Shown here piece after piece: positions 14,980 through 53,778 of a DNA stretch of 64,000 bases. Within the stretch, counting starts at the first letter, position 1. Every line of letters begins with the position of its first letter. The stretch spans positions 6,852,817-6,916,816 of the forward strand of contig NW_003314261.1 in NCBI RefSeq assembly GCF_000143415.4, read 5' to 3'. Source of the DNA: Selaginella moellendorffii. Lineage: Eukaryota > Plantae > Lycopodiophyta. Made by a program: the position numbers and the translations under genes. The notes beneath the pieces are model-generated. The model had not been told where the DNA came from. It saw only the letters and a list, made by a program, of their open reading frames with translations, and did no database searches.

Positions 14980-14980
<1 letters not shown>

Positions 14981-15054
<74 letters not shown>
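14981..15054. repeat. (TA)n microsatellite
   Basis: Perfect TA run of about 74 nt. Confidence 0.95.
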
Positions 15055-15060
<6 letters not shown>

Positions 15061-15326
15061 AAAAACTTTTATTAAAAAATATAATAATATTTTAAGTAAC
15101 AAGGATTAGCATAAATTATAGTTCACTTATATCAATTAATAACTACTACTAACTAGAACTATGACTATGTATTATTCTAGCTATGAAAACGACTTCACCT
15201 TTTTGTTATTGTAAAAGATGGTTTCTGAAATAAAAATAAAAATGTTTAAAGTTCTCAAAATTTTATATATTAAAGTACTAAAATAAATTAAAATTAAATT
15301 ATATCTTCAATTATAACTAACACACA

Positions 15327-15330
<4 letters not shown>

Positions 15331-15396
<66 letters not shown>
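15331..15396. repeat. (TA)n microsatellite abutting the old Gypsy LTR
   Basis: Perfect TA run of about 66 nt. Confidence 0.95.
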
Positions 15397-15400
<4 letters not shown>

Positions 15401-17269
15401 GTATTGAGATTTTGGTAGCCGTTAGATTAGTTTTAATCTAGACCATTCATTTTCATATATAAACTAAGATTTTTGGGCTAATTGATATATACATTTTTTG
15501 TATTCCCTTTCCATATGCCATGCACTCACATTGGTGAAGGTGAAAGGCACCTTTGATTGTCCCTAAGGAGTGTTTGAATATGGGATTTTGGTTTAAATCT
15601 AACTTTTGCATTTTCTAGATTTAGTTTTTTCCATTTCCTTTCTTTTATTTATTTTTTCAAGATTTTGGTTTAGATCTAATTTTTGCATTATCTAGATCTC
15701 CCTTTCCTTTTAGCTTTTTTTTCATTTTTTTTCTTTTGTTCTTTCCTTTTCATTCATTTTTATGGTAGAGCAGCAATCTCTTCCTCCTTTGACTCTAAAG
15801 TAGCATTTGGTGCAATTTCTTGATGTTATACAATTGTAATTGAATAACCAAACTCAATTGATGGCAACATTCATAGCATATAGTATAGTTCTTCTTACTC
15901 TTGGTGCCAATCCTCACGTTTGGCTGGAGTTCTTTTGTAAGAGTTGTAGGGATGATGTGTACCATTGGTTCAATCACTTCATGCCATATATTATTTTTAG
16001 GATGATGCTCAATGTTTGCATGAGCTTCCCACGTGTCTCCAAAGGACAATGCTGTAGTGGTACAATGGTTTGAGTGCAGCCACTTATAGGGATTGAAGTG
16101 TTATCTTAGATGTCTTCAAATACACATTTGAACATGCTGACTATTGTGATGATGCCTTCCAACAATTGCATCATCCTCATTAAGGGCCATCTAAGTCAAT
16201 GATGCAATTTGACGTTCGTTTCCAAAGCTTCTTGCTTCGTGTGAAACAAAATATATTGGAGCAGATCAAGCTAGGAATGTTATGGTTAGCACTTCGTCAA
16301 AATATTGTCGGACTTGTGCATACACTTGCTTTAGCCACCCTTGACAATGCTTTTCACTTGGCACAACATTATGAGACATTGCCTCTTCCACTTCTGGTTG
16401 CATGTCCTTGAACTCCATTTCCTGTGGGCAATGGTTCTATTCCAATAAAAGTTGATGCTACTGTTGCTCCAATCTAAGGATAAGGGCGAGGACATAGTCA
16501 TGGCCGTGATGTTCGCTACTGAGCATGTGATGAAATTGATCACACTTATTAGTGTTGTTAGCATTTTCTAGATTAGTAGCCTTTATTTCTTGAGTGGAGA
16601 CCTTGGCGTTAACAACGTTCTATTGGTGTTGCTGTAGTGGAACATCTGGATACCAAGATGCATCCAAAAAATAAAGAGTCACGCAAGTAACGAAGGGACT
16701 TTGCACAAATAAGTCAATGACCCATCTATCTTTCTTTCGGGAGTATAATCAAGGGATTCACTTGGCACAAGTTAATCCAGTGTTGACTTTCCAAACTTGT
16801 TTTTATAACAAAAGGTCTTCTATTATTCTCTTTGTATTGGTTGATATAGTTTCGAGTTTATTTTCTATTGCTCAACCTGTTGCCACACGTTGCCATCAAC
16901 ACTTGTGTCATGTGGTGAAGCCAATTTTCATTCTTTATGGCAATAGCCATACACATGCATATGCATGGGATGAGGTGGATCTAGAGATGCTTATAGGTGA
17001 TTTTGAGCTTGGGTTGTAGTCATTGTAGGTGGTGCCGAGTCAAGCTTTTTATCTCATCCTTGGTATAAATTGATTGTAGTGCAATCATGCCAAATATGAC
17101 TTTAAGGTTTCTCCCTCTTGTCTTATACTTCTTTATATTTCATCCATTCCTCTCACTTTCGTACCTCTTTATCCTTTTGCTTTTACCTCTATGTAAGGAA
17201 CCGACTCCCCGAGATGTTGTAGGCTAAAGGATCCCCAAAAGCTTGACCGAAGTGACAAAGAGTTCATCG

Positions 17270-17550
17270 AATGGGACCAAGTCGAGGATCGAGTCCAAGA
17301 CCGACTCTAGGACCGAGTTCGAGATAGAGTCCGGAATCGAGTCCGAGACCGACTCGGGGACCGAGTTCGAGTCCGAGTTCGAGACCGAGTTCGAGACGGA
17401 GTCCGAGATCCGAAATCGGGTCTAAGACCGAGTCCGAGGTCGAGTCCGAGGTCGGATCCGAGATCGGGTCCGAGATCGAGTCCGTGATCGAGTCCGAACC
17501 CGAATCCGAAGTCGGATCCGAAATCGGGTCCGAGATCGAGCCAGAGACTA
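17270..17550. repeat. Degenerate hexamer array (GAGTCC/GAGACC/GAGTTC/GAGATC) in the LTR; second copy about 23655-23935
   Basis: 6-nt periodicity visible directly; CG-rich. Confidence 0.9.
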
Positions 17551-18399
17551 AGTCCAAATACTAATACGGGTCAAGGGGTGAAAGCCCAAAGCGTGCGTCT
17601 CCCAGGGGGGGGGGGGCTGCAGGGGGTTCCAAAAGTATAGTAGGGATAGTGAGGTCCAGGAACCAGTTTTGAAGGGACTCTCCAGTTGGGCTTCCAAACC
17701 GACTTGAGGTTGGGACTGGGACCGAGGGGCCTTGGGTGGGAGTGAGCATGGACTTGGTTGGTGCCGGAGGGGCCATCCAAGGAAGTGCTCAAGAGCAGCT
17801 CCCACTCCCGAAAGGGAAACCGATTGCGGTGCTCCCGGCTCATGTGGAGTGGTGCCCCACTTGAGTACCATGCGGCTCATTGGTCCTCGCCCTTCCTAGG
17901 GGCTTGGGCCTTCCTTCGGGATGGAAGTGGGGGGCGAGAGGTACCCATACCGGGCCGCTAGGCCACGGTGTTTCGCCCCGGCGTCCCGAAGCAAGTGTTG
18001 CACTCAAGACTTGGGATTTAGAGGGTCCCATGATCAAGTCTTGTGGTACCAAGGGATGTTAGGAACCTGGAAGCTTGGTGTGCTTGGCTGCTTGTGCTTG
18101 CGGGGAGTGTAGCCGAACCTTAAGTCTAGTCTAACCTGGGGAGGGGGATTGGGAGTGATTTGGGAATCCATGGAAGGATGGCTAACACTCCGTTGCTCGT
18201 GCAGTGAGTAGCTGAAACCAAGTAGGAGCTGGTACCATAGGCGAGAACCTTGGCGAGTGAACTTAGCAAAAGCCAAGGCAGTGTTGGACGGATAGGCGAG
18301 GTAAGCTGGCAAAGTGGAAAGGAAAAATTTGTGGCTTACAATTTGGTATCGGAGCCTTCTCCTCAGTTCTAGCGAAGGATAGAGGCGGATTGCTGGGAG

Positions 18400-21300
18400 A
18401 TGGCAAGGGCAGGGCGTAAGCGAACCCAGGCGGAGACAGAACCTCCGCCAGAGCTGGAGCCTCCGGTCGAACAAGAGGCTATGGATGAGGAATCCTTGCA
18501 TGAGGAGGACTCTAGTGAGGAAACTTCCAAACAGGAGTCCGGTGGCGAGGTTCGGTCGTCCAAGGCTCGATTGGACGTTCTAGAAGGTCAATTGGCGCAG
18601 ACCAATGCCCTGCTGGAGACTCTCGTACACAAGCTAAAGCGTGACGAGAAACGGAAGAAAAGGCGAAAGACTGCGGATGCTGGCAGCGCAGAAGGTGCGG
18701 ACCCTTCGGCAGGGACTGAGGCAAAACCAGACAAGGTCGAACAGACCGAAGTGGAATCAGTCCCTCAGGCAGTTCCCAAGTACAAACCAAAGCCCCCACC
18801 GGTGTTCAAGGGAGTGAACGACTATAAGGTTGTGGAGGATTGGTTTTACGATATGGAGGACTACTTCCGAGCGTTACGATTACCGAGCTCGGAGAAGGTC
18901 CCATGTGCAAAACCATACTTGGCAGATAATGCCAAGTCTTGGTGGAGAACAACGGAGGCCAACGAAGGACCGGTGGCCACCTGGGACATGATGAAGGCGA
19001 GGATCCGCGCGACATACGTTCCTCCGAATGCCACTCTGCATCTGAGAGATGAGCTGAGTAGGCTGAAGCAGACTGGAACCATCCAGGAATATGTGAATGG
19101 GTTCATGGCAAAGAGGATACTTGTCACGGACATGGGGGATATGGATGCGTTCCATGCCTTTATATCAGGTTTGCAAACCTGGGCTCGCGGTGAGGTGATG
19201 CGCTGGAACCCGACCAACTACAAGGAAGCGTTGGATGCGGCCATCAAGGTGCATTTCAACGATAACCTGCGAAAGGGGAACACGACGGGGTCGGGATCCA
19301 CATTTCACAAAGGGGCCAAACCGAGGGGAACATATAGCAGGGGGAAATTCAAGAAGAGTTTCTCTAAGAATGAGTCCTCGGGATTTCGGAAAGGCAAATC
19401 CGGTGGCCAGCGAGCAAGTACGTGGGGGAGTCAAGCGAAAAGAGACAAACCCACGGATAAGAAGGTCAAGTCATATAGCAGCGTGGGAAACAACGTATGC
19501 TATAACTGCGGTGAAGCGGGACACTTTTCGAGGGAATGTCCCTACCCGAAGAAGGCCAGAGCCAATATGGCCATCAAGTCGGGCGAAGTCCAAAATGAGG
19601 TATGTGATCCAGTCCCTAACTCAAAGTTACTCATTACACGAGCAACTTTGGTAGAGAGTCGTTCGCGACATCTACTAGCCCTCCGAGGGAAGCTCGGAGG
19701 TAGCTTTGTTAAGATCCTTATTGACACGGGTGCTTCGGATAATTTTGTGGCTGCAGACATAGTCCGGCAAGCCGGACTAACGGTGCAGCGGCTAGGCGAA
19801 CCAAGGACTATAGAGTTTGTTCAAGGTAGCCAAAGTACCGATGAGGTACTTCGACAAGCGAAAGTCGAAGTAGGGACATGGAAGGTAGACATGGATTTCA
19901 CCGTGTTGGACATGGCGGGATTTGACGTGATCTTCGGAATGGATTGGTTCAATCGGTTCGTGGTAGCCCTACATGGACAAGGTAGGAACCTTGTGGTACT
20001 GGCGAATGCCCAAGGAAGAAGATCTAGGGTGGAAGCCCAGGATCTAAAGGTAGGGCAAAGCAAGGCCAAAGAATCCTGCTTAAACCTGGTGTCCACGAGA
20101 GGACAACTCACTAAAGGAACTAAGGCAGCCTTTTTGTGCTTACTCTCGGTGAAGAGTGACAAAAAGACAAGAACGGAAGAAGTGCCTTTAGTGATCCAGC
20201 GGGTGTTGGACCAATTCCAGGATACCATGCCGGAGGAGCTACCGGCGGGGCTGCCCCCAGCACGACCGATAGAACATAAGATTGAGCTGGTCGAGGGTGC
20301 TGAGGCAGTGGTTCGTCCCCCTTATCGTTTGAACGAAAAAGAACTCAAGGAGCTCAAGTGCCAACTAGAGGAGTTGGTGGACAAAGGGTATGTTAGGTTG
20401 AGCAAGTCGCCGTATGGGGCGCCGGTGTTATTTGTGAAAAAGAAAGATGGATCTATGCGCATGTGCATAGATTACCGCTTGCTCAACAAGTATACAAAGA
20501 AGAACAAGTACCCTTTGCCAAGGATTGAGGACCTGTTCGATAGGTTGGGAAAGGCAAAATATTTCTCGAGGATTGACCTAAGGTCAGGATACTACCAGAT
20601 CAGGGTAGCCGAGGAAGATGTCGAGAAGACAACCTGTCGAACGAGGTATGGGAGCTTTGAGTTTCTGGTGATGCCCTTCGGGCTATGTAATGCGCCGGCA
20701 ACGTTTTCGGCGCTAATGAACCACGTCTTTGTACCCTATCTGGATCACTTCGTGGTCGTCTATATCGACGACATCCTGATCTATAGCGAGACGCTAGAAG
20801 AGCATGCCGAACACTTGGCGAAGGTGTTTGAGAAACTAAGGGAACACAAGCTGTATGCTAAAGAGAGCAAATGTGACTTTGCTCAACAAGAGGTAAAGTT
20901 TCTCGGGCATGTGGTGGGCCAGGACGGGCTCAAGGTGGACTTGGAGAAGGTCCAAGCGATCCAGGAATGGGAGCGACCATCGAATGTACATGAGTTGAGG
21001 GCGTTCCTGGGGCTATGCAACTACTATCGAAAGTTTATCAGACACTATTCGAGAGTAGCCCTGCCCTTAACGGACCAAACAGGAAAAGGGAAGATGGTAT
21101 GGACAGCAGAATGCGAGGCGGCATTCGTCCACCTCAAAGGGAAGTTGAGGAAGGCTCCCGTATTGGCATTGCCAGACTTTGGTAAGGACTTTGAGGTAGA
21201 AACGGATGCTTCGGACTTTGCGTTGGGCGCAGTTCTGAAGCAAGACAACCATCCGGTAGCGTTCTTCTCGAAGAAGCTGGACAAGGCTCAACGGAAGTGG

Positions 21301-23172
21301 CCTGCCCATGAGAAGGAATTGTTTGCGGTGGTCAAGGCACTCAAGGAGTGGCGACACTACCTTGGGAGACACTTCAAGGTTTACACGGACAATGTGGCAA
21401 CGAAACACTTCTTGTCACAGCCCGACCTAAGAGGGAAACAAGGTCGGTGGGCCAATGCCTTGGCCGAGTTTGATTGCGAAATTCTGTACAAGCCTGGGAA
21501 GAGCAACATCGTGGCGGATGCGCTAAGTCGAAAAGCGAGCTTGAAGTTGGCAATATCCAGCGCAACAGCAACCTTCTGGGACGATGTGCGGACAGCATAT
21601 GAGAACGATGGTCTAGCACAAGAAGTGTTGCTGAGGAATCTAGAGGCGCGGGAAGCTCACCAGAGAGGTGAGCTGCCAACGGAAGAGAAAACGGGCTATG
21701 CGGAACACAACGGACTCATTTATTACAAGCAAACGAGGGTGTATGTTCCAGAAGGGGAACTAAGGAAGGTGGCCTTAGAAGAGTGTCATGACGGACCTCT
21801 TGCGGGACACGGCGGAGTGCCCAAGACAATGGGCTTACTCAAGAGGAAGTACCATTGGCCAGATATGGCTAAGGACGTCCAAGACTATGTAAAGACATGT
21901 CCAACATGTCAGTAGGTCAAAGCCGTGACTAAGGCTAGTGGGGGCTTGTTGCAAAGCATCCCAATTCCAGATCGCCCGTGGAAATGTCTTACGATGGACT
22001 TCATCACGGGACTACCCCCAAGCGAGGGGTTCGATGCGATATTCGTGGTGGTGGACCGATTTTCAAAGATGGCACATTTCATACCCACCACAACGGACGT
22101 GGATGCGGAAGGTGTGGCGAAGCTGTTCTTTGAACAAGTGGTTCGAGTGCGGGGAAGGCCGGAAGAGATTATCTCAGATCGAGATAAGATCTTCACTAGT
22201 AGGTTCTAGAGGACACTCCTAGAACAGTATCGCACCAAATTGAAATTCAGCACAGCCTATCACCCACAGACAGGTAATGGGTATTAAGTCAAGATTGATG
22301 GCACTAACACTTCTTGACAGACTGACAAACGGAAAGGGTGAATAGGCAGCTGGAGGATTATTTGCGATGCTATGTCTCGGGAGACCAGACCGACTGGGTA
22401 AGTCATTTGGGACTTGCGGAAATGTGTTATAACAACTCACCACACTCAAGCATCGGGGTGAGTCCATGGGAAGTCATCAATGGGCGAGCTATTGAAGGTC
22501 CTGTGGAACTCGGCGTGGCCGAGTATCATGGAGAGTTACCCGCAGTGGAGGCATTCACGGCGGAAAGACTTAACATTTGGAATCTAGTGAGGGATTCCTT
22601 GGAACGGGCTCAACAAAGGCAAACTAAGTACGCGAACCAAAAGCGTCGGGATGTGGAGTTCCAAGCTGGGGAGAAGGTGTGGCTGAACACCAAGAACCTC
22701 AGACTACCAAGCTGGATCAGCCGAAAGTTGACCCAAAGGTAAAGACGCATGTATTCCTGTAAATGAATTGATCTTGAGTTCCTTAAGCAGGTTCGCGGGG
22801 CCTTATGAAATTGAGGCACGAATCGGTAAAGTGGCTTACCGACTCCGACTTCCTCGAGAGATGGGGAAGATGCACCCAGTGTTCCACGTGAACTTACTCA
22901 AGCCGTACTTTGAGGATCCGCTTCGCAAGGACCAAGTGAGACCTTTACCTGAGGTTATCCAAGGGGAAGAGGAATATGAAGTCGAGGCCATCCTCAATGC
23001 GCGCAAGAGCAAGCGACAAGGACGCGAGGTGAGAGAGTTCCATGTGAAGTGGAAAGGATTTCCACACTGCGAAGCAACATGGGAACCGGAGGAGAACCTA
23101 GCGAACGCACAAGATCTAGTGGAGGAATTTCTGCAAGGCAGAACTTTATGTACTTATGCAAAATTCAATTAA
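18400..23172 (+). pseudogene. gag-pol polyprotein (Gag-PR-RT-RNase H-integrase-chromodomain); integrase interrupted by intron-like inserts and three stops
   Basis: Zn knuckle [30 protein letters not shown], RNase H, integrase HHCC and core, GPY motif, chromodomain EEYEVEAIL...VKWKGF...TWEPEENL. Stops at 21913, 22207 and 22323. Confidence 0.93.
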
Positions 23173-26100
23173 AAATATCAATTTGCAAAGTTGAGCAAAT
23201 GGCATATGTTGGGACCCGAAGGCGCGCCAAAGGTAAGCTAATTAGCATGGGTTGGATAGGTCGACCAGGCGTAGGGCACTACGCCCGACTCCCTGCGGGG
23301 ATGTCGAATCCGTAGACGTATTCTACGGAGGTTGGGTTCGAGTCCCAACCCCCTAGTAAAGCAAGGCTGGGTTCAAGTCCCGACCCTATACTAGGGCGTG
23401 GTGAGGTGAGGGGTATAGGGACACCTATATTCCGTTGTCATGGGCTCTTGGCCGGGGAGGCTAACTTAGGCACACCGCTAAGTGGGGGGATGCCCCCGGA
23501 GACATGGACAACAAGTCGTAGGATAAAATGAGACGTTCAATGTGGGCATCGAACTTCTTCTATGGGTGGTGGAGTTGTAAGGAACCGACTCCCCGAGATG
23601 TCGTAGGCTAAAGGATCCCCAAAAGCTTGACCGAAGTGACAAAGAGTTCATCGGATGGGACCAAGTCGAGGATCGAGTCCAAGACCGACTCTAGGACCGA
23701 GTTCGAGATAGAGTCCGGAATCGAGTCCGAGACCGACTCGGGGACCGAGTTCGAGTCCGAGTTCGAGACCGAGTTCGAGACGGAGTCCGAGATCCGAAAT
23801 CGGGTCCAAGACCGAGTCCGAGGTCGAGTCCGAGGTCGGATCCGAGATCGGGTCCGAGATCGAGTCCGTGATCGAGTCCGAACCCGAATCCGAAGTCGGA
23901 TCCGAAATCGGGTCCGAGATCGAGCCAGAGACTAAGTCCAAATACTAATACAGGTCAAGGGGTGAAAGCCCAAAGCGTGCGTCTCCCAGGGGGGGGGGGC
24001 TGCAGGGGGTTCCAAAAGTATAGTAGGGATAGTGAGGTCCAGGAACCAGTTTTGAAGGGACTCTCCAGTTGGGCTTCCAAACCGACTTGAGGTTGGGACT
24101 GGGACCGAGGGGCCTTGGGTGGGAGTGAGCATGGACTTGGCTGGTGCCGGAGGGGCCATCCAAGGAAGTGCTCAAGAGCAGCTCCCACTCCCGAAAGGGA
24201 AACCGATTGCGGTGCTCCCGGCTCATGTGGAGTGGTGCCCCACTTGAGTACCATGCGGCTCATTGGTCCTCGCCCTTCCTAGGGGCTTGGGCCTTCCTTC
24301 GGGATGGAAGTGGGGGGCGAGAGGTACCCATACCGGGCCGCTAGGTCACGGTGTTTCGCCCCGGCGTCCCGAAGCAAGTGTTGCACTCAAGACTTGGGAT
24401 TTAGAGGGTCCCATGATCAAGTCTTGTGGTACCAAGGGATGTTAGGAACCTGGAAGCTTGGTGTGCTTGGCTGCTTGTGCTTGCGGGGAGTGTAGCCGAA
24501 CCTTAAGTCCAGTCTAACCCGGGGAGGGGGATTGGGAGTGATTTGGGAATCCATGGAAGGATGGCTAACACTCCGTTGCTCGTGCAGTGAGTAGCTGAAA
24601 CCAAGTAGGAGCTGGTACCATAGGCGAGAACCTTGGCGAGTGAACTTAGCAAAAGCCAAGGCAGTGTTGGACGGATAGGCGAGGTAAGCTGGCAAAGTGG
24701 AAAGGAAAAATTTGTAGCTTACACTCTACTTCCATTACTTTTGTCTCCCCATTACTTCCTCATAGATTTCCATTTTGTTCTACTCTTCCCTTTTCCGATT
24801 CCTCCGACAGTCTTTATGTTGTAGCAATTGATTGACTCATGAAAGAGTATGCTGATCTCTTTGAATTTGAACTATCATCTGGGGCCAAGATTGCTATATA
24901 TCATCTGATTCCAACCAAGGATATTTGTCCAATCAAGGTTCTTGTTCATCGTTAATCACCCAAAAAGATCAAGATTTTATGTGCAAATGTTAAAGAGATA
25001 TTGTAAAAGGGTGTTATTCGAAAGTCGCAAAGTCCTTGGGCATGTAAACCTCATTTTATGACAAAGCTTAATGGGAATATTCATTTTGGCATTGACTATC
25101 ATTTGTTAAATGAAGTGACGATTTTGGATGTGTACCTTTTTCCTCACACTATTGATCTCTTAGATCATTTGGGGAAACGTCATTAGTTCATTAAGTTAAA
25201 TCTTGCTTCTGGGTACTAGTAAGTATCAATAGCCAAAGAAGATATTCCTAATATTGCTTTTTGTACACTGTTTGGTTTGTATGAGTTTTCTGGTAATGCC
25301 GTTTGGTTTAAATAATGCTCCAACAACTTTCCAGCAGATGATGGATGAAGTTCTTTGCGATATACCAGAGATGACTGCTAACTTCACTGATGATATCTTG
25401 ATCCACTCGGAGGGGACATCAGAGGAACACGTCCCTGATGTTTGTAAAGTGTTGAATCGGCTACAATACGTTCATTTAAAGCTGAAGCAATTGAAGTGCG
25501 TGTTTAGGTCCAATAACACAATTTATAATGAGTACCTTATTTCTTGTGAGGTTTACAAGTTGATCCAAAGGAACTTATGGTTGTCCTAAAGTTCCCTACT
25601 CTGAAATATGTTAATGATGTATAGCACTTTCTAGGTAAGGTGTAGTATCTCAGTCATTTTGTGGATCATCTTTCTTATTGCACTACACCTTTGCGAGCGT
25701 TGCTGAAGTCATTAACATCATCTTTTATCTAATCTCCAAATTGTGAGTAGGTGTTCATGGATCTCAAATAACTATTAATGACTCTTCTAGTTTTGGCATA
25801 TCCTGATTACACTTGACCTTTCATTTTGTGCGTGGATGCTTTTCATATTAGTCTTGGAGGTGTCTTGATGCAAGAAAGCCTAACTATGTCTAAGTGTGCC
25901 TGATTAACACTATTCTATTGTATATATAAACCATACATTACAACTAGTGGAAGTGAACTACTCCAGGACAGAGAAGAAGTGTTTAGTTGTAATCTAGGGT
26001 TTCGAGAAACTTCATGCATATTTAGATAGTTCTTGGACATTACTAAAAAGTGATTATGTTGTCGTTACTTCATTATTGAAGCGGAAGAACCTGATTGGTC

Positions 26101-26311
26101 ATACTACTCAGTGGGCTTTAAAACTTCAAATATATCATTTTGATATTGTTCATCGCTTGGGGAGTTCTATGGACGATGCTGATGCTTTTTTTTTAGCTCC
26201 TCTTCCTTCTTCACTCTTTTCTTATGTTTCTGACGAACTTATTATTCCAACATATGTGGATTTTCTATACAAGAATTATATGTCGTTAGTGGTTGTTTTA
26301 CTTCATGTTTA

Positions 26312-34376: not shown

Positions 34377-37327
34377 TCAGACGTAGTAAATCATTCCCAC
34401 CTCGATGAGGCAAATGTGAGGAATGTCGAGTGCTACAGCCGGCCCCCGGCAGTTCTTTCTCAAAAAGTTGTAGCAAACGTCGATGACGAACTTCTTCATG
34501 AAGGACGAGGAGCGCTTGGCCTTGACATACGAGTGCCCCAGCATGTACGCCACCCCCGAGTTCTTGGCATCAAACAGCTCCGTCAGCTCCGCCCGGATGT
34601 CTGGATCCAGTTCCGGGCTCCTCGGCAGCTCGAACCTCACCCTCCTTGGTTGCAAAGCTTCGATCTCCGGCGTGCCCAGGGACAGCGATCTGATCGACTG
34701 CTTGTCACTGTCTTCCAGCCCCGAGGTTACCATCTTGATGCTGGACTGGAGCGGCAATCCCATCATCGTCATCCTCCCGTCAACGGACGAGTGGTCGCTG
34801 CTCGACGGGGCCCAAGTGCTCGATGCCTCGGTTTGGATGAACTCCCCAACGTTGAAGATAAGCTGGTTCTCGAAATCGTTGTCGTCCTTGTGGACGTCCT
34901 TGTAGCCATAGCGCACGATGCACCGGAACATCCTGTACTCCTTGGGACCGATGCGGCCGATGAGATACCTCTCCTCTGGCCGGACGTAGGGAACTGGGAC
35001 CGATTTGATGCACACGAAGATGAGCACCTGGTGGAAGGCCGGAAGATTGGTGACGAAGTGGGAGAAGATCGCGGGGACGCCAGTGACGAGCTCCGAGTAG
35101 ATGAGCCCGATCCCAGGGACACGGACGATGCCGAGGCTCGGCCCAAGAGTGAGCAGCCACTTCATAGAGACCTTGTTCTGGAGATCAAAGTCATACTTTT
35201 TCGCCGTGCCGTAGTGCCAAGTGTACATGACCGCGACGAAGAACACGGATAGCGCCAGCGGCACCCAGCCGCCTTCGTGTACTTTGAGCATCGCGGATGA
35301 GACGTACATGAGCTCGATCGTGCCGAAGAACATGAAAAAGATGATGGCAAGGATGATGCTCCGCTTCCATACGATCACAATCACCAGTGACATGAGGAAC
35401 GTCGTCACAAACATGACCGTGATGACAGCAAGTCCTGTGTGATCATGACACATTTGCGAGGATAAGTCTTCAACACAAACACGAAGTTTTCATACAAACG
35501 TACCATAAGCGTGGCCGATGAAAATTGTGCTTCTAAAGCCCAGAGTGACTGCCAGGCAGAGGATGAGCAGTATCCAATTAACCTCGGGAATGTAGATTTG
35601 TCCATATATGTCTTTTGATGTGTGGACGACTTTCACCCTTGGAAAACAGCCCAAGGACATGCACTGTTTGATGATTGAGAAGGTTGCTGAGATCACTGCC
35701 TGGCTCCCCACCACTGACGCAAGTGTTGCTATGACGACAACTGGCCAGTAAACAGGCTCTGTGACAGCAACACATAAGTATTCAATAACAACAGTGGGAC
35801 AATGACATACTTGGGATCGACTTGTAGAAGCTGCCCTCAATGTCGCTGTGATTACGAGACAAATAGGCGGCTTGGCCCATATAAGCACAAACCAGGCAAG
35901 GATAAACGACACAGCCAAAAGCAATCTGCAAACACAAATACACACAGTGATCTCAGCTCGGGGAATCACAGCTCTCACCTGGATAGACAGCTCAGAAAAG
36001 TGTCCCAAATCTGCAAACATGGCCTCTGTGCCTGCAAAAGTAGAGTGCTTCAGTCCGCGGACGAGCGTTGTATATCGTATAATTGAGCAAACCTGTGATG
36101 CAAAGCAGCACTCCTCCCATAGATATCCAGCCATCGAATCCGGTTCTCTTGAAATACTTGTACATATAGTAAGGGGATAAAGCTCGGACGACGTGAGGGT
36201 TCCAGCGAGCGATGTTGTAAATTCCAATGGCGCCGATGCTGAATAGCCAGGCCAGCACTATGGGAGCGAACATAAATGCCACCTTGTGCGTGCCATGGTG
36301 CTGCAGCGCGAAAAGCCCCACCAAAATGAGGCAGGCGATCAGTTCTACTACGTCTGCGAGCCAACAAGAAAATGCACAGCATAAGTCTCACTGACAAGAA
36401 AACCATAAGGTTGGCCTTACGCTTGTTGAGGTCATCGACAGCCACTTTGATGCCATAAACAGAAGATAGAACTGAAAGCCGTCCATTAGTTACAGATAGC
36501 GTTGAAAAAAAAGAGGAAAAGCAAAGCTTATTACCCGAGATGGCGGGAGTTAAAACCCCGTCACCAATCACCATGCACGTCCCCAGCAAAACCACTAGCA
36601 GCAAAGCAATGCGGAGGCTCTTGTGCCTTTCCAGGAGCCCTTTCATCCTTGCCCCACGATAGCTCTCCCTGACGTTCTGGAGCTTGTAAGTCGATAGCTC
36701 CTCGTCAACCGCCTGTTGATTTGGCAAGAGGCTTAACTTTGCGTGCCTGCACAGCAGTGAATATAACGCGAATGTTCCACCTGCAACAGAAGGACAAAAC
36801 ACCAAAACCAGTGAGAGTGATTCGCAAAAACTAGAAAACTTCTCCTAAAAGTCTATCTATCTCTCGAGATTTTCCTCTCCAACCTTGCTACGAATCAAAA
36901 ACTCCCACCACCACCACCCACCTTCGCCGTTGTCATCAGCACGGAGTACGATGAGAACATACTTGAGTAAAGGAATGAGTGTCAGGGTGTAAAGGATGAA
37001 CGAGAGAACCCCCAAAACCTCCGTGTCGTCCTCGTGGAGCTGGAGCTTTCCCGAAAATGTGCTCCGGTACACATAGAGAGGAGAGGTGCTCAAATCTCCA
37101 TAGACCACACCAAAGCTCTGGTACGCCAAGAGCAGCACCGCCTTGAGGGATTTCCTCCGGTAGCTCTGCCAAGAACAAACAAACAAACCATCCATCGGTT
37201 AGTCCGGATCGAAATTGGGGATTCCCGGCGCCGCGGCAGCCCCGAAATCGCAGCAAAGATCCATCCATACCTTAGGATTGAGGTCGATGAAGCTGTTGCC
37301 TCCGACAGACGACACCTCGGGATCCAT
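34377..37327 (-). CDS. HAK/KUP/KT potassium transporter
   Basis: [59 protein letters not shown]-terminal EVGMIYYV*; first exon [10 protein letters not shown]. Confidence 0.95.
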
Positions 37328-38003
37328 CGCCACGAAATTTCGGCCGCGCTCGCCTCTAGAACCAAATGCTCCCCGCGGATCGCAGCAAAACCTCGCCAGC
37401 TCCTAGAATGCAGCATCGGCGGCAGCGCCTAGCCGCCGCGGCGGCGATCGGCGACCGAAAATCTGCATTGAGCGCCCGCGCACAAGATTCCTGACGACAC
37501 AACATCCCTGTTCTTCTTGTCCATCTCTTTCTCGTCCCTCTCACTCACGCAAACGCTCTCCCCTCTCTCTTTCTCATTCGATCTCTCTCTCTCTCCTATC
37601 ACTTCTATCACTTCTATCGCGCTCTAGCTAGGCTTTGCGAAAGGAAGGAAGCGAGAAAACTCCAGCGAAGGCTGCCACTGCCGTCAGTGGAGACAGCATA
37701 TACCGGTAGGATCGTTTATTCTGTTATCGAGATTGTAAAGAGATTCGCGGCCGTACTGTGGTCCATAGCCCGTGACCAATGGAATATAGGACACGGTGTT
37801 GTTGGTGGTACTGGAAATTACTGTCTGTTAGGTGGGTGATTAAACCGCGGTAAGAATCCAACGGGATTAAAAAACTACCGTGCTACGGCGTGCTTTGCGT
37901 GGACCATCTTCCACAACGGGAATCGAGGATGGTTTTTAAATTTTAAAAGATGCTTTGCGGATATGCTGTCCCTGATTTGTTAAGAACCCTAAAGTTAGGG
38001 CAA

Positions 38004-38653
38004 ATGGAGGAGCTCACGGAGGCAGAGCGGCGGGCGCTGCGCGGCAGCAAATTTCCGCCGCTGCAGCAGGATCCTGATCGATCGGGGAATGCGCAGCCCA
38101 GGTATGCGTGCAATCCACAGGGAAATCGCAGGTGTTTTTGACGACATTCAAGGCTGGCTCATCCAGGGGGAGCGCTCACCACCAACAAAGCTGCGGCATT
38201 GGCTAAGTTCCTGGAGAGGAAGCTCAAGGAGCCTGGGAGTCTCAGCTCGCTGGATCCAGATATCGTGGAGAGGGCAGTGCTCAATGCTAAAGCCGCTGTT
38301 AATCCAGGTAAGCTTAAAGCAAATGTATGTATTGTCTTACGATGTTCTTCGTTTTCTTGTGTGTTGTTTCCAGGGAAGCATTCCACCGGATTGAAGATCC
38401 GTCACGTTACTTCTTTTTCGGACTCTGAGGAGGTACAGACATGGATCGTTTAAAGTGTTTTCTGGTCCAAAATCTTTGCGATGGTTCACTCCAGGAATCG
38501 ATGAAGAGAACAGCGGGGCCGAGCTCGTCGCTGTCCGTTGCTGCTCCTGTCATAGACAAAAAGAAGAAAAACAAGAAGAATAAGAAGGGCAAGAACATCA
38601 TGAAGAAGAAGAAGAAGAAAAAGCAAAAGCAAAAACATAACAAACAGAACTAA
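38004..38653 (+). CDS. Small uncharacterised protein with Lys-rich C-terminus (probably nuclear/nucleolar), 4 exons
   Basis: Spliced product MEELTEAERRALRGSKF...LAHPGGALTTNKAAALAKFLERKL...poly-K tail; canonical GT-AG introns; telo-box-like AACCCTAA just upstream. Confidence 0.7.
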
Positions 38654-39022
38654 GTCAAAGCTTGGAAATGCAATAGAAAAGCGCGGCCTACAGAAGTACG
38701 TCCTTTCGGAACCTTTCTTTTGTACTTTAGTTGGCTGGATTTTCCTATTTCTCGTGCAGAGCTTGGACTTCGTCAAATCTATGAGCGCAAGCTTCCCTGG
38801 ATTTGGACCTTGTCAATGGGTTTTTTAAGCCTGGAAACAGTCATCAGAGGCAGCAGACACGGTTTATGACGACTAAGTTACGAGTAGCTTGGACTATAAG
38901 AGCCTTGTATCAGTGGTTCATTTCATCAAGGAGCGACGCTCATCTGCGGATCATCGATCACTGCCAAGAGAATTCGAGGAGGAAGAAGGAGTGCCAAGTG
39001 ATTGAAGAAGTTTAGAACGAGG

Positions 39023-40212
39023 ATGGAAACTTGGAGAGGGAGCGTTTTGGTTTTGCTCCTGCTGTCACTGAGCTTGGGTATCTTGGCTCACGGTGAGAGT
39101 GGAGGACGCAAGCATGGCTACCACAGCTACTCGAGATCTTGTCCTCAGGCCGAGAGGATCATAAGGGACACTCTAAGCAAGCACGCCGGTTGGGACAGGA
39201 CGATACCAGCAGGAGTTCTTCGCTTGCACTTCCACGACTGTTTCGTCGACGTGAGTAGCTTTACAAGATTTAAATTCTGGTTTTCTAACTTTGCTGTTCT
39301 CCAGGGCTGTGATGGATCGATTCTTCTCGACTCAACTCCCACCGACGGAACTAAAGTGGAAAAATTGTCCCTTCCAAACTTCATGTCCGCCAGGGGCTTC
39401 GAGGTGATTGAGGAAGCAAAGCAGAGGTTGGAAGCAGCTTGTCCTGGAGTTGTCTCCTGTGCCGACACTCTCGCCATAGCTGCCAGAGACTCGACCGTCA
39501 TGGTAAGCTTAGCATCTTTTGAGAAACGCTGAATCAAGTTCTAAGACGTTGTCACTGCAGCTTGGAGGAAAGTATTACCAAGTCCCAACCGGACGCTACG
39601 ACGGAAGAGTTTCCAGCCAGGAACGTGGCAACACCTTACCATCCCCGTTTGGCGATGCCTCGGCTCTCATTCAAAACTTCAAGGAGCGCGGCTTGTCAGT
39701 CCAGGACCTCGTCGTTCTCTCAGGTACGAATCGATTTCAACTTCCATCTCCTTCCCTCCAGTTTGTAAGTAGGCATTAACGCTACTCCCTTGCAAACCAC
39801 AGGTGGTCACACTCTTGGTACCGCCGGCTGCGCCACATTCAGCAATCGTTTGGACAACTTTACGAAAACTGGCAAGCCGGACCCGACCATCAATCCCAGA
39901 TACCTCTCTCATCTCCGGAGGCAGTGCCCAGCACCGGGGTCGCCAAACCGTGTGGCGCTGGACAAAGGCTCGGAGTTTGTGTTCGACAACAGCTACCACA
40001 AGAACTTGGCCAGGAGAAACGGGGTCCTCACGTCGGATCAAGTTCTCAACGAGGACTCGAGAACAAGTCACTACGTCAAGAACTTTGCGCACAAGCAGCA
40101 CGACTTTTTGTCGCAGTTTGCGGCCTCGATGGTGAAGATGGGATACATTGGGTGGAAGAACAAGCACAATGGGGAAATCAGGAGGGTGTGCTCCATGGTA
40201 AACACCCATTAA
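39023..40212 (+). CDS. Class III secretory peroxidase, copy 1 (4 exons)
   Basis: Signal peptide, [46 protein letters not shown]. Confidence 0.95.
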
Positions 40213-40489
40213 ACACGGTGAAACCGTGACTGATTCTTTTTGGAAATAATCGTAAACTGTGAATATGGCCATTTTTCTTTACTGCGTCACAAAATCAAAT
40301 GCATAGTTTACCGTTCTTGCAGCTCAGGAAACTATATCACTTTCCAAATGACATGCTTGGGAAGCCTGGCCACGAGATTAATAAAGTAAAGGTATAGATC
40401 AACCATAAAATTATAAACTGTATCTTCACTACATAGAGCTTGAATTTCCAAGCTCTATCTTCACTACAAGGCAGGCATTGTTAGGCAAG

Positions 40490-41370
40490 GCGTAATCAGC
40501 CCACTCTTCCCGAGAAAAGGATTCCAAACGGAGAGCCTCCTCTCATGCCTGGAATATATCAACGCTTGTCCAGGCGGTCTGGCTGCGGACAATCACCGTG
40601 TGGCGCCACCATCGCATGAGCTTGCCGCTGCTGTCCTCGATCTAGTTGTCCTCCGCAAAGAACTTACCACTGTCCGCTCTTCAAGCTGGAGTACATGGCC
40701 GGACGGAATGCTTGCACTTCCTTGAGGAAGAACGAGTTCCGAGCTCGCACGTCGCCGTGGCCGAGCAAGTAGGCGATCCCCGTCTCTCGATACTTCCTAG
40801 AGAATCGTCCTCGCTCACGGACGAGCCAGCTCCTAGCTCGTCGTTGTCCGCCACCATCAAGTCCTCCTCGAACCTCCTCCTCAGCAGAAGCGGCCTCGTT
40901 GTTGGCGGCGGCGGCGTTCTCTGCTCGTTCCAAAACCTCCACGCGAAGATAAAGTTCTCCAGGAACTCCACCAGCAGCTGCTCGAATAGCCACGCCGTGG
41001 GGATTTTCCACAGGTTTAACACTTACCTCCCGGTGTTCTTCTGCATCAGATACGTGCCAGTCGCAACAGTTCCTCGCGAGATAAGGGCCCCAAGAGCTGC
41101 CACATACGTATACGTGAGGTATGGATACAGGGACATGTGGACGAGCTCGTTGTACACCAGTCCCAGGCCGGCCACCCTGTGCCTCACTTCGTACTTGTGT
41201 TTCATCTTCGTGCATATGTACATGACGAAGGCGAGAACTAGTGGAATCTTCCTTCCGTGAACAGAACCGATGACAACTATACGCCAGCTCGATGGTTCCA
41301 AAACGAAGGAAAATTTACCGAGTGATTAACATGATGGTGTGGCAACCACTGGACAAAGCATAAGGCGTGG
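40490..41370 (-). pseudogene. Deletion-collapsed F-box + HAK fragments
   Basis: Patchwork matches to the F-box gene (about 53220-53460) and the HAK2 last exon (about 53890-54780) with many internal deletions. Confidence 0.8.
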
Positions 41371-41857
41371 TTTCACCAGGAAAACGAGCGAACTCCTCCA
41401 TCGGTGGAGATGGTTCGTATAAAGGATGTTGTGGACAAGGACAACCGAAAATGAATGAAGTAACGATCGTAAATCCCTTCTCTTCTCGTCGTGATTCTAC
41501 GTTTCCAAGGTAGATGGACGATCTTCTACGATGGAAATTGGGTCCTAAGGCAAGAGCAATACGTTTCACTATGCCAATGGCGATACAATCATCAGTTGCA
41601 CTTTTGGAAAAATTTGAGGCATGCATCTTGTCTGTAGTGGTTTTTGCGGTTCTTCTCTCCCTTGGTGACGTTTTTGACGAAACAAGAAATGACGTTTTCT
41701 TAAGATTAGCGGTTGAAAGAAGGCCGCTGATGATCCTTAGATTCGCAAGATCCAAACAAATCTCTTTATATATATTCCTTCGATAATATTCCTTGTCTCT
41801 CACAAATTTCTAAATCGATACTTTACATAGTAACCCTGCCCTATTATATTGGCGGCG

Positions 41858-43910
41858 ATGGAAGCTCTAGCATTGGCGTTCTCCTGGTTGCGACGCGCTC
41901 CAGCACAGGCAAGCACACAGGCAAGCAGGGGATTGAAGATCCTCCTCCTTGAGGTGTGTACAGCTCGCTCGTTTCTCTCATTTTTTCTTGTTCCTTGACA
42001 TTTTTCGCGTGCCGGCAGACTCCTGCAGCAACAGCGGACAAGGAAGTGGAGGATTTCCCAGCACTGCCCTCGCAGCTCGAGGCAGTGATCGCCAGCAGTG
42101 ACCCAGCATCAAGTGTTCCCGAGTATGATGCACCTGTACTCGAGGAGGATGACGAGCATGACTTGCAAGAGGTAACTCCAGATGTAGCTAATCTTCTCTT
42201 GCAGCCGGTTGCTCCAATCGAGCTGGAGGATTCGTCCTCGCCAGCATCACCCTCGCAGCTCGAGGCAGTTAGTCACGCGGCAGCATCAAGTGTTCCCGAG
42301 TACGATCCACCACCATTACCTGTACTCGAGGATGACAACCATGATTCGCAAGAGGTAACTCCGAGAGCTTAGATGGTTTGCCTGGAACCGCACCAACCTT
42401 TTCTTGCAGCTAGAGGCGGTCATGGCTGGCGTTGAGGATTCAGTTCGGTATACTTCTCTCGGTGGCAAGACGCTTGCAATCGACGACAACGACGACAACC
42501 TGAGCTGGGAGGATATCCAGAGCTTCTTTCAGACCTGGACACTCCCGTCGATTGAGCTACCGTCCAGAGCCGATTTGCATCTGGAGGTGGAGGAACTTAA
42601 GAAGCTAGTTGGAGAGTGGACTTGGAAGCTACCGACCAGTCTCCAGTCGATAAAGGAAGAAATGTGGAGTAGGCTTTTGAACGCGGGCTTGGAGGAGGAC
42701 GAGGTGACGTCCCAGGAATTATGGGAAGAACTCACAAACTTCCTGGGGTGGCATCGAGTCCCAGTTACCAGTTCCCGACGGATGCTTCTGGAAGCAGCGC
42801 CAGGTCCTCCTATCTTCGTCTCCAACGAGAATGGACCTTCTCTGTTCCGCTGGGTGGATCGCTTCATAGCTCCACTGAGCGCTCAACAAGATGGGGAAGA
42901 ACAAGGCGGTGTTTCATCACCACCAGCCTCAGTCTTTTGGCAGAGGTTGAGAGGCGATGGCACCAGCAGCATGAGAAAGCACAGGAGGCCTCCAGACAAG
43001 AATAGTGAAGGACAAGAACTTATGGCAGCAATGGACGAGGAGTCATCCTACAAGGTATGTCTCTGTTGACAGGAATCAGATATGTATTCGTACTAAGATC
43101 TACACTGAACAGGTGCTAAAGTCTCATGCAGCAGCAGGATCTCGAAAGTTGTTGAGGCAAGCTGATGTTTCATCGACACCAGCTTCAGTCTTTTGGCGGA
43201 GCTTGCGAGGCGATGGCGTGGGAATGCACAGGAGGCTTCCATACAAGAACAGTGAGGAACTTGCAGCAGCAATGGCCGAGGAGTCATCTTACAAGGTATG
43301 CCTCTGCTGACAGGAATCAGATATATTCGTACTAAGATTGAAAATTGAACAGGTGCTAAAGTCCCATGCAGCCACAGGATTTCCATCTCAGAAGTTACTG
43401 GCTGGCGGCACTGTTGACACTAAGGAGGCTCGTAGCAATGCTTCACCACCACCAGCATCGCCACCACCTTTTATGTGGCGGTGGTTCCCTCGAAGCTTGG
43501 GCAAGGATGGTGGGAAGGCCAAGAGGATCAACACCGAAACTTTTCAAGAAGCTGAAGAGACTTCAATATCGAGCTCTCATAGTTTAGTGGATGACGTCGG
43601 GGTGGGCAGCAGCAGCGGCAGTGCCAGTGATTTCATCGAGTTGTTTGAAGGAGAAGGCATTAGCAGCAGTGATGCCTTCCTGAACTCGCTGTTGGAAAGC
43701 AAAGGTGGCGGCAGCAACAGCAATGCGGATCTTCAGCTGGCTTCCTCCAATGATCTCAACTTGCAAGCGACGGCTGTGGCGGCAACTCCGCTGCTTCTTC
43801 CAATCCTTGCCGGGCTGCTGGTCGCGCTGCTCTTCCTCTTCGTCCTCTACTTCCTCTCGGTGATCAGGAGGAGGTGGGGGAGGAGGAAGAGAGGGCTCCT
43901 GCCTCACTGA
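41858..43910 (+). CDS. Orphan acidic repeat protein with C-terminal transmembrane helix, copy 1
   Basis: Phase-0 GT-AG introns join open exons; internal duplicated exons; C-terminal LLLPILAGLLVALLFLFVLYFLSVI followed by RRRWGRRKR. The start is uncertain. Confidence 0.6.
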
Positions 43911-44750
43911 GTTCCAGCTTTCGATGCAAATGCATCAGGACGTGCAGTGGTTGCCGCAGGCATGGATCAAAACTTGAAGCCGGTGGCTTAACACTCCGTG
44001 ATGCTCCCCGTCGGGAGTGATAGAACTTCGGTGGCAGATTTTCATCGGCTGGAGAGAAGGTGGCTCATCAAGGCAAGAAGTGAGCGGAGATATCTTACAA
44101 AACAGAGGCCGCTGGTGGTTCTGGAGCTTTGTCTGGTCGTACACAACTTTCTACACCGATTGGTGGTGTAAGTGCAAGCTAGGAAGAAAGATCATATACT
44201 GAATGTTTGTAGCATTTAAACTTGGCTGATTCAGAAAAGAAACAGTTTTTTGTTTTCTTCAGAGGTTTGGTGGGAAACAAAAGAAGTAGCCAAGACTAGA
44301 TCAGCACCTGTTCACGAAATGAGTTACTACCCTGTGTGAGAAGCAAATCGATGGAAGGAAGCAATAGTTACAATTCCAGTAGCTTTGTGTCGCAATTTGA
44401 GTTGAGCTACAGTCAGGATCATGATAAGCCAGTGTATCTCATACAAAAACTGGCAAGCCGCCAGATACCTGTCATCTCCAGCGGCAGTGTCCATCGCCGG
44501 AATTGGCAAACCGTGTGGGGCTGGACAAAGGCTCGGAGTTTGACAAACTACAAAAGAAACGGGATCCTTCAAGTTCTCAAAGAACCAGGCACTGCGTGAA
44601 GAAATTTGCGCACAAGCAGCACGAGTTCCTGGGGTGGAACAAACACAAAGGGTAGAATGGAAACACCCATCAAGGATGGTGAGACATGCGTAAGAAACAA
44701 TCGTGAAATGTGAAGATAAGAATCAAGTTACAAAGGACAATAGTTATCTC

Positions 44751-45653
44751 CGAATTGCGCCTTGCCCAATGGTGGCAGGAATCGAGCATATCTCGTCACT
44801 TGGAAATCCAAGCTCTATCTTGATGGTAGTGTGCCGCGAGCTCAAGGTCCAGATCTTGGAGTTTGATTTGAAACTCGAAGAGTTTAACTTGAAACGTGGT
44901 GTGGTGAGCGAGTATGTGATCGATTTTGACGATTGTGGCCTCAGCTTCACTGGTCAAGCTAGGAACTACCTGAATTTTTGCTCCTACAAGATGAAGACTT
45001 ACGTCTACATGGATGCCGGGACTTGGGACAGGAACATCTACCGGCCTTTCTCGACACTTCTGAAAATTCAGACGCTTGATTGGTCCAATGCTTGGTCAAT
45101 AAGTTAAATCTGTGATATTTCGGTCGCATGGCGAGAGAGAAGTAGTGAAGGAGATCTTATAATCAGAAGCTATTAGTTGTGGTGTCAAGCTCAGTCACTC
45201 TTGTGCATAAGGAATCCATGTAAAACATCTTGCTGTGAGTCACCACAGGCCTTACCGAGATTTTGGCTTCTTCCAATCTGAACCAATCCTTGTCCCCGCG
45301 CGTGAAGGTGAAAACTTCACCATCGAAGTCCCACACCACGATCTTATTGTTGAAGATGCAAGCCCTGGACCAGTAGGGAATCTCTTCCCACACGTTGAGG
45401 AAAGGATTCCCAAGGTAGAGCTTCAAACGGAGTGTGGAGCGAGCCAGCATGAAACGCTTGTCCTCCGAGACCGCGCACAGGCAGTCTGGCTGCGGACCAT
45501 CACCGCGTCGCGCCCATCGCATCATCTTGCCGCCGCTGTCCACGACGTAGCTGCTCTTGAAGCTGGAGCTGTCCACGGCTGCTTTCCACGCCAGAGCGAC
45601 GATTAGGGCAGCTTGAGCAGTATCTCCTCCACAACCTCCTCTGCGGCAATGCC
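44751..45653 (-). pseudogene. F-box pseudogene with internal inversion and deletions
   Basis: 5' half on the minus strand with deletions in the F-box; 3' half (44751-45164) inverted relative to the copy at 52620-53010. Confidence 0.8.
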
Positions 45654-45769
45654 ATCGTTGTCTTCCTCCTCCCGCCCACAACTGCAACCTATATACATGA
45701 GAACTTCCTTCTTACGACAAAAGGTACTTACTCTTAATATACATTATACAAGTTCTGCGCGATCTTACC

Positions 45770-46117
45770 TTATACGAAATAAGTCATCCCAAGCTGGCCG
45801 GGCGGAATGTTGAGCATCTCGGCTCTCTGCTTGCAGTTCCTCCGGAGGAACGCGAGAGGTAATTGATGACAAGCTTCTTAAGGAAGAACGAGTCCTTTCG
45901 AGCTCTCACGTCGCCGTGGCCGAGCAAGTAGACGATCCCGGTCTCTCGGCGCTTCCTCAGCAACGCCAGAGAATCGTCCTCGCTCACGGACGAGCCAGCC
46001 TCGTCGTCGTTGTCCGCCACCATCAAGTCCTCCTCGAACCCCCTCCTCAGCAGAAGCGGCCTCGTTGTTGACGGCGGCGGCGGGGTTCTCTGCTCGTTCC
46101 AAAGCCTCCTCCCGAGC
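45770..46117 (-). pseudogene. 3' fragment of the HAK2 transporter
   Basis: Matches 53779-54159 ([27 protein letters not shown]) with deletions. Confidence 0.85.
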
Positions 46118-46804
46118 AAATGTATGTATTGTCTTACGATGTTCTTCGTTTTCTTGTGTGTTGTTTCCGGGGAAGCATTCCACCGGATTGAAGATCCATC
46201 ACGTTGCTTCTTTTTCGGACTCCGAGGAGGTACAGACATGGATCGTTTGAAGTGTTTTCTCGTCCACAATCTTTGCGATGGTTCACTCCAGGAATCGATG
46301 AAGACAACAGCGGGGCCGAGCTCGTCGCTGCCCGTCGCTGCTCCTGTCATAGACAAAAAGAAGAAAAACAAGAAGAATAAGAACATCATGAAGAAGAAGA
46401 AGAAGAAAAAGCAAAAAACATAACAAACAGAACTAAGTCAGAGCTTGGAAATGCAATAGAAAACGCGGCCTACAGATGTACGTCCTTTCGGAACCTTTCT
46501 TTTGTACGTTAGTTGGCTGGATTTTCCTATTTCTCGTGCAGAGCTTGGACTTCCTCAAATCTATGAGGTGCAAGCTTCTCTGGATTTGGACCTTGTCAAT
46601 GGGTTTTTTAAGCCTGGAAACAGTCATCAGAGGCAGCAGACACGCTTTATGACGACTAAGTTACAAGTAGCTTGGACTATAAGAGCCTTGTATCAGTGGC
46701 TCATTTCATAAGGAACGGCGCTCATCTTCGGATCATCGATCACTGCCAAGAGAATTTGAGGAGGAAGAAGAAGTGCCAAGTGATTGAAGAAGTTTGGAAC
46801 GAGG

Positions 46805-47994: not shown

Positions 47995-48289
47995 ACACGG
48001 TGAAACCGTGACTGATTCTTTTTGGAAATAATCGTAAACTGTGAATATGGCCATTTTTCTTTACTGCGTCACAAAATTAAATGCATAGTTTACCGTTCTT
48101 GCAGCTCAGGAAACTATATCACTTTCCAAATGACATGCTTGGGAAGCCTGGCCACGAGACTAATGGTCATGAGACCTTCATGCAGCTTGTTTTCTGTCAA
48201 AGTAAAGGTATGGATCAACCATAAAATTGTAAACTGTATCTTCACTACATAGAGCTTGAATTTCCAAGCTACAAGGTTGGCATTGTTGG

Positions 48290-53572: not shown

Positions 53573-53778
53573 CGTTGTCTTCCTCCTCCCCCCACTGTAA
53601 CCTTGGCTACATGAGAACTTCCCTTTTAAGACAAAAAGGTACTTACTCTTAATGCTTCTAGCTCCTTTGGTTATGTGCAAGCCATTTACAGTTGCATCTC
53701 TGCCACCTTTCTAAAACCGAGGAAACCGCAATGTCAGTATACATTATACAAGTTCTGCGCGATATCAAACGTCTTACC

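Follow-up and report, generated by a model that had tools for sequence, protein, structure and literature searches.

How can a retrotransposon that is copied through RNA keep introns inside its own integrase gene? The classic proof that an element moves through RNA is that introns are lost on the way. The question is raised by a Ty3/Gypsy element in the window, the whole 64-kb stretch of Selaginella moellendorffii DNA analysed here, in which the initial annotation had noticed two short inserts that break the integrase frame.

Anatomy of the element

The features of the element are as follows.

17192..24723, forward strand: whole Ty3/Gypsy chromovirus copy, 7,532 nt
17187-17191 and 24724-24728: target site duplication CTCTA (5 bp), flanking the element
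17192..18340, forward strand: 5' LTR, 1,149 nt, with TG..CA ends, a poly-G run at 17605 and an array of 12-nt-period repeats near its start
18344..18356, forward strand: primer binding site (PBS), 13 nt, presumably of the initiator-tRNA-Met type
18400..22273, forward strand: coding exon 1 (Gag, protease, reverse transcriptase (RT), RNase H, HHCC finger and the integrase core through the second catalytic Asp)
19498-19539: CCHC knuckle of Gag, within coding exon 1
22274..22320, forward strand: integrase intron 1, 47 nt, GT..AG, GC 0.38, between the catalytic Asp and Glu
22321..22738, forward strand: coding exon 2 (catalytic Glu and the remainder of integrase)
22739..22790, forward strand: integrase intron 2, 52 nt, GT..AG, GC 0.37, directly before the GPY motif
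22791..23172, forward strand: coding exon 3 (GPY/SH3 module and chromodomain; Pfam SH3_Tf2-1 2.8e-16, Chromo 4e-17; stop at 23170)
23564..23574, forward strand: polypurine tract
23576..24723, forward strand: 3' LTR, 1,148 nt

Two TG..CA LTRs, the 5-bp target site duplication, the PBS, the polypurine tract and the Pfam domain order Gag-protease-RT-RNase H-integrase identify a Ty3/Gypsy element, and the PF00385 chromodomain (4e-17) at the integrase C terminus, encoded in exon 3 and connected to integrase only through splicing, identifies a chromovirus. A single frame runs from the ATG at 18400 through Gag, protease, RT, RNase H and the integrase core. The LTRs differ by nine transitions and one indel in 1,149 nt, in agreement with the identity of about 99% estimated initially. 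No second copy of the element and no other integrase relative was found within the 64-kb window.

The window copy carries three private in-frame stops in the spliced frame, at 21913 and 22207 in exon 1 and at 22323 in exon 2. The stop that the initial annotation had placed at the Gly of the integrase motif HPQTDGQTERxN is present, but the two at 21913 and 22207 had gone unlisted. The family majority and the covering contigs of probable RNA (described below) have sense codons at all three positions; this copy is a young casualty.

Several features of the surroundings were recorded. The imperfect 12-nt repeat array occupies the first third of each LTR (17282-17570 and 23666-23950). An older, decayed Gypsy element (15900-17190 and 24729-26200) appears to host the nested copy, which is SM1-Galahad-like (see below); broken RT/RNase H frames of 21-46% identity lie behind the 3' LTR (25007-26189), and by eye gag/protease-like remains seem to sit before the 5' LTR. 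Two long (TA)n runs are found at 14980-15400, about 1.8 kb upstream of the element. Positions 38300-54800 hold a tandem duplication of about 7.8 kb, with blocks 93-99% identical and copies that have decayed unequally; it contains a class III peroxidase gene, potassium-transporter pieces and an F-box-like gene.

Two spliceosomal introns in the integrase gene

Both inserts were confirmed at the coordinates first assigned to them (22274-22320 and 22739-22790), bounded by GT..AG and with lengths that are not multiples of 3. When they are read through, translation stops: an in-frame TAA at 22285, within intron 1, closes the unspliced ORF at 3,885 nt (1,295 aa), and the exon-2 frame reading into intron 2 meets a TAA at the start of that intron. 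When both are excised, a frame of 1,557 codons results, interrupted in the window copy by the three private stops. The rebuilt motifs claimed initially (STAYHPQTD-stop-QTERVN and RKLTQRFAGPY) are recovered by this excision as HPQTD-stop-QTERVN and RKLTQRFAGPY, and excision of intron 1 brings back the D-35-E spacing of the catalytic residues (D1260, E1296).

Comparison with homologous proteins supports these boundaries. The alignment is gap-free within ±4 aa of junction 1 in 229 of the 229 covering homologs and of junction 2 in 182 of 186; within ±6 aa, for the first 123 proteins, the counts are 91/91 and 70/79. Among 219 homologs that contain the HPQT motif, none is interrupted by a stop within it. 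By chance, windows bounded by GT..AG occur in the coding DNA of the element at 14 of 3,800 positions for a length of 47 nt and at 31 of 3,800 for 52 nt.

The inserts also resemble host introns. Their GC content (0.37-0.38) is lower than that of the surrounding coding DNA (0.51-0.52), a value that by itself is unremarkable (about the lowest 1% of windows). The U1-like donor scores are 7/9 for intron 1 and 6/9 for intron 2, compared with 6-7/9 for three host introns. Intron 1 contains CTAAC 17 nt from its 3' end; intron 2 has no perfect CTRAY, and a TTGAT lies 23 nt from its 3' end. Eleven host introns delimited in two genes measure 52-141 nt (median 63), so that the size match proposed initially holds for the 52-nt insert, while the 47-nt insert is shorter than all 11. 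One of the host genes of the window, an intact KUP/HAK potassium transporter gene at 34377-37330 on the reverse strand, encodes 779 aa and has eight introns of 52-141 nt. Short direct repeats of 5 nt and 4 nt flank the integrase introns; they are mostly due to the AG/GT preference at splice junctions and give no evidence of an introner origin. We conclude that integrase introns 1 and 2 are U2-type spliceosomal introns.

Splicing at the predicted junctions in probable RNA

Transcripts were represented by assembled contigs from six probable RNA runs (four studies), for which the RNA label is a guess, and were compared with one DNA run; the RNA and DNA runs derive from different samples, and contigs lose rare variants, give neither strand nor levels and cannot phase four splices. 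Intron 1 was skipped in three of the six probable RNA runs (X4, X5 and X19; two of the four studies) and intron 2 in four (X4, X5, X19 and X20; three of the four studies). The 47-nt and 52-nt joints are both GT..AG and fall exactly at 22273/22321 and 22738/22791, the junctions that had been predicted from the DNA, and one X4 contig (contig 19) skips both introns together. Neither joint is present among the 7,131 contigs of the DNA run X1, for which the six-row joint table is complete, although rare intron-less copies could escape contigs.

Unspliced forms were seen as well. Intron 1 is kept in contigs of X6 (contig 26), X18 (contig 14) and X20, and X6 and X18 show cover inside intron 2. The spliced contigs differ from the window copy at 3-4 letters (X5), 8 and 16 letters (X19) and 22 letters (X20); these differences in haplotype mean that several copies use identical splice sites. 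In X20, a variant, chimeric copy has intron 2 spliced and intron 1 kept, which indicates that splicing is not strictly all-or-none. This contig (contig 12; 22240-22870, depth 59) joins about 250 unrelated letters to a variant integrase fragment in which the retained intron 1 measures 46 nt, and perhaps represents a truncated copy transcribed from a host promoter.

The element matches the SM1-Galahad family

By its published descriptors, as distinct from a sequence alignment, the window element matches SM1-Galahad of S. moellendorffii (Novikov et al. 2012, PMC3350952), described as a 7.5-kb family of hundreds of copies. That paper places SM1-Galahad in the Galadriel clade; another leaves some Selaginella chromoviruses unclassified (PMC6317226). 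The description gives LTRs of >1 kb (about 1.15 kb) with poly-G, a 13-bp tRNA-Met PBS, and a consensus with a 3,885-bp ORF (1,295 aa) lacking a chromodomain and two short ORFs downstream (PMC3350952). In the window copy, 3,885 nt counted from the ATG at 18400 end exactly at the TAA within intron 1, the chromodomain lies within an ATG ORF of 309 nt, equal to the published 309 bp, and the other short downstream ORF measures 318 nt versus 316 in print. The published family and the window element thus agree in size, LTRs, poly-G, PBS and ORF lengths, but the publication has three ORFs, for which its account of the family gives 'no intact copy', and no introns: neither its text nor its supplement contains the string 'intron' or 'splic'. 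The sister family, SM2-Galahad, is reported there with one ORF of 1,577 aa. The family had already been described, though without its introns.

Retention of the introns across the family

Cover in the DNA run is level across both inserts, with dips at 22696-22764 that coincide with family variants near the junction, and variants inside the introns are common to tens of DNA contigs. Together with the published consensus ORF, which ends at the intron-1 stop, this bears out the original proposal that the inserts travel with the element.

The segregating variants suggest which product is maintained. The listed DNA variants with a frequency of at least 5% include 25 that lie downstream of intron 1. 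Of these, 20 occupy the third codon position when read in the spliced frame (binomial p 2e-6 versus one third, the sites not being independent and 40 of 47 variant rows being covered); 21 of the 25 are synonymous in that frame and 4 are not. Because mostly synonymous variants segregate among intron-bearing copies, the spliced integrase product is likely under purifying selection. In the 40 of 47 rows covered, the GT and AG ends of the introns are free of variants. The expectation in the initial annotation that introns diverge faster than exons found no support: the listed variants at or above 5% number three in intron 1 and one in intron 2, versus 20 at about 166 third positions.

Outside the species, no close relative was found (best matches 59%, 55% and 43%), in searches of protein sets that favour intron-less ORFs; exon 2 alone recovered no close relative among 9 candidates, and 11 metagenome loci yielded weak fragments that said nothing about introns. 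The best whole-length matches are plant elements, 40-43% identical. A separate observation concerns the high-GC metagenome contigs L001-L004, which carry two head-to-head integrase C-terminal fragments about 18 nt apart. Homologs read straight through both integrase intron sites, which, with the single 1,577-aa ORF of SM2-Galahad, points to a gain of the introns in the SM1-Galahad lineage, as judged from sequence comparison.

Two further splices seen in one run, in the leader and in Gag

The contigs of X4 revealed two additional skipped segments.

18301..18366, forward strand: leader intron, 66 nt, AG/GTAAGC ... TTCTCCTCAG, covering the LTR end and the entire PBS
19600..19756, forward strand: alternative Gag intron, 157 nt, GT..AG, inside the ORF, containing the protease DTGA motif (19723-19734)

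The leader splice was seen in one contig of one run, in a loose end outside the aligned stretch. The alignment of X4 contig 17 begins at 18365 and leaves a loose end of 110 letters, of which the 30 examined match 18269-18298 at 29 positions; the same letters are found in the 3' LTR as well. The joint corresponds to a skip of 18301-18366 (GTAAGC..CTCAG), and the expected 2-nt junction ambiguity fits exactly. The donor is of U1 type (7/9), and the acceptor lies ten bases behind the PBS. One X6 contig crosses the start of the stretch and appears unspliced at the leader. Reverse transcription of LTR elements begins at the PBS. As the leader splice takes out the whole PBS, leader-spliced RNA cannot be copied. 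Another donor-like site scoring 7/9 (AAG/GTAAGC) occurs at 23233 in the 3' untranslated region, where an X6 contig is unspliced and no joint was seen.

Removal of 19600-19756 creates a stop one codon past the junction and leaves a Gag of 401 aa. Direct evidence comes from X4 only, in which contig 18 skips the intron; a contig of X6 begins at the acceptor, with 28 letters placed elsewhere, and X6 also has cover inside the intron. Two marks of a Copia-type shGAG, a protease-removing splice and a stop after Gag, are found here in this one run. A further mark of that type is that polyadenylation occurs early, behind the splice; the spliced X4 contig extends 760 nt beyond the stop, and contigs cannot show RNA ends.

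A model for the separation of genome and message

Unspliced RNA encodes only the 1,295-aa protein, the integrase of which is without the catalytic Glu, the GPY module and the chromodomain; integrase must therefore come from spliced RNA. Since the introns persist in genomic copies, spliced RNA must seldom serve as the template for copying. That integrase needs splicing is a weaker claim than the initial one, in which splicing controls how much integrase is made. The division into an unspliced template and a spliced mRNA, already suggested in the initial annotation, is the best reading of the family-wide inserts and of their skipping in probable RNA and not in DNA, with the packaging of unspliced RNA presumed. 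Retrotransposons must avoid packaging spliced RNA (Chang et al., PMC3735527).

The integrase introns are spliced in probable RNA and kept in genomic copies, and we consider it probable that they persist because the leader splice removes the PBS. With somewhat less assurance, we favour the further proposal that the PBS inside an intron acts as a lock, such that each RNA is either a genome without integrase or an uncopyable message, that pol can thereby acquire host-type introns, even between catalytic residues, and that a Copia-style Gag splice has arisen independently in this Gypsy element.

Three classes of RNA would be made under this lock. The first would be the unspliced, PBS-bearing genomic RNA, the sole copied template. 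In the second, the leader intron and both integrase introns would be spliced and the Gag intron kept, giving the mRNA for a 1,557-aa Gag-Pol; the X4 contigs aligned at the Gag intron all skip it, and we infer this class. The third, with the Gag intron spliced too, would be a Gag-only mRNA and could supply the Gag excess otherwise missing in a single-ORF element. In any transcript that engages the spliceosome, the cap-proximal leader intron would be lost no less readily than those in integrase, and for that reason intron-less templates would rarely be made. With the lock in place, reverse transcription could no longer rid pol of introns that it had gained, and this would account for the intron gain in this lineage. 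The coupling is the weak step: PBS-bearing RNA without the integrase introns would yield intron-less copies and must be rare.

The main rival is a separate pool of the kind described for BARE1. The integrase introns would then be real and required, but something else would set unspliced RNA apart (a promoter of its own or an uncapped pool, an intronic packaging signal, or an export route), with the leader splice incidental. We regard this as rather unlikely, though it has a precedent in BARE1, in which two TATA boxes give rise to separate RNA pools (PMC3735527), and gains from the leader splice being known from a single contig. A leader intron with a 7/9 donor and an acceptor just past the PBS, removal of which bars copying, speaks for the lock instead. 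Pairing between intron 1 and the leader reaches -31.0 kcal/mol, matched by 5 of 200 shuffles, a weak hint of a packaging signal, but that between intron 2 and the leader is unremarkable (123 of 200); as these were two tests against simple shuffles (5/200 and 123/200), we did not accept intron-leader pairing as evidence for such a signal.

Far less probable is a non-autonomous family, in which the inserts broke integrase, SM2-Galahad proteins mobilise the copies and the host spliceosome removes the inserts accidentally. The describing paper's account of no intact copy (PMC3350952), the intron-less sister family in the same genome and the three stops of the window copy would fit, but those stops are private to this copy, the variants downstream of intron 1 are chiefly synonymous in the spliced frame and both integrase splices restore the frame exactly, and accidental splicing leaves the absence of intron-less copies from spliced RNA unexplained. 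Least probable of all, the skipping contigs would stem from intron-less genomic copies and the inserts would be DNA-level insertions in a subfamily, for which the guessed run types, the different samples and the 5- and 4-nt flanking repeats could be cited, but the DNA run has neither integrase joint, the skipping contigs are of different haplotypes and one skips intron 2 only, X4 also shows skips of two more GT..AG segments, one of which contains the PBS, indispensable to any transposed copy, and the published consensus retains intron 1.

Comparison with known systems

A high-copy family here requires two splices for any active integrase, yet retains its introns. On the preferred reading, the 66-nt intron over the PBS is what lets the retroelement separate genome from message, an answer that can be tested directly. 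ORF-based screens label such families dead or non-autonomous, and more may hide in intron-rich small genomes.

According to a 2025 review, plant LTR elements are generally without introns, with Ogre and EVD named as exceptions (PMC12786077). Ogre, also Ty3/Gypsy, keeps its intron in genomic copies, and splicing permits translation of the whole polyprotein (PMC6317226, PMC12786077). As described there, Ogre is not a chromovirus and has a single intron, about 270 bp long, that separates two ORFs, whereas the window element has two host-sized introns inside integrase, one of them, unlike the Ogre intron, between catalytic residues. We rejected membership in Ogre because a chromodomain is present and Gag to RNase H lie in one frame; the element functions like Ogre only.

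The Gag splice has its counterpart in the shGAG of the Ty1/Copia elements EVD and BARE1, where an alternative intron likewise takes out the protease site with a stop right after Gag; the unspliced RNA of those elements encodes complete Gag-Pol, whereas that of the window element does not. Such a conserved splice was not found in Arabidopsis Gypsy elements in the survey reported by Oberlin et al. (PMC5580714). BARE1 also resembles our proposal in having separate RNA pools for translation and copying (PMC3735527), set in that description by the promoter and R region rather than by a PBS intron. The centromeric chromoviruses of rice (CRR) have spliced transcripts too, but there RT is removed and, in the account cited, integrase is not built by splicing (PMC3735527). 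Penelope-like elements, which are non-LTR and use another mechanism, also keep spliceosomal introns after retrotransposition, with the significance of this retention given as unknown in the section cited (PMC8557442).

Our searches of the openly accessible literature yielded no report of introns in SM1-Galahad, of host-sized introns inside the integrase of an LTR element, or of a plant element with an intron over its PBS.

In foamy viruses, the major splice donor lies upstream of the PBS. Their Pol enzymes come from a spliced mRNA, the unspliced RNA is the genome, and the major splice donor is near the 5' end (PMC7828637), an arrangement like the one proposed here. As set out in that source, the foamy virus reaches a separate Pol ORF through a single large splice, with Pol unfused to Gag and no integrase introns, and in these respects the window element differs. 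Each ingredient of the model thus has a partial precedent, in Ogre, in shGAG, in the foamy-virus pol mRNA and in Penelope-like elements.
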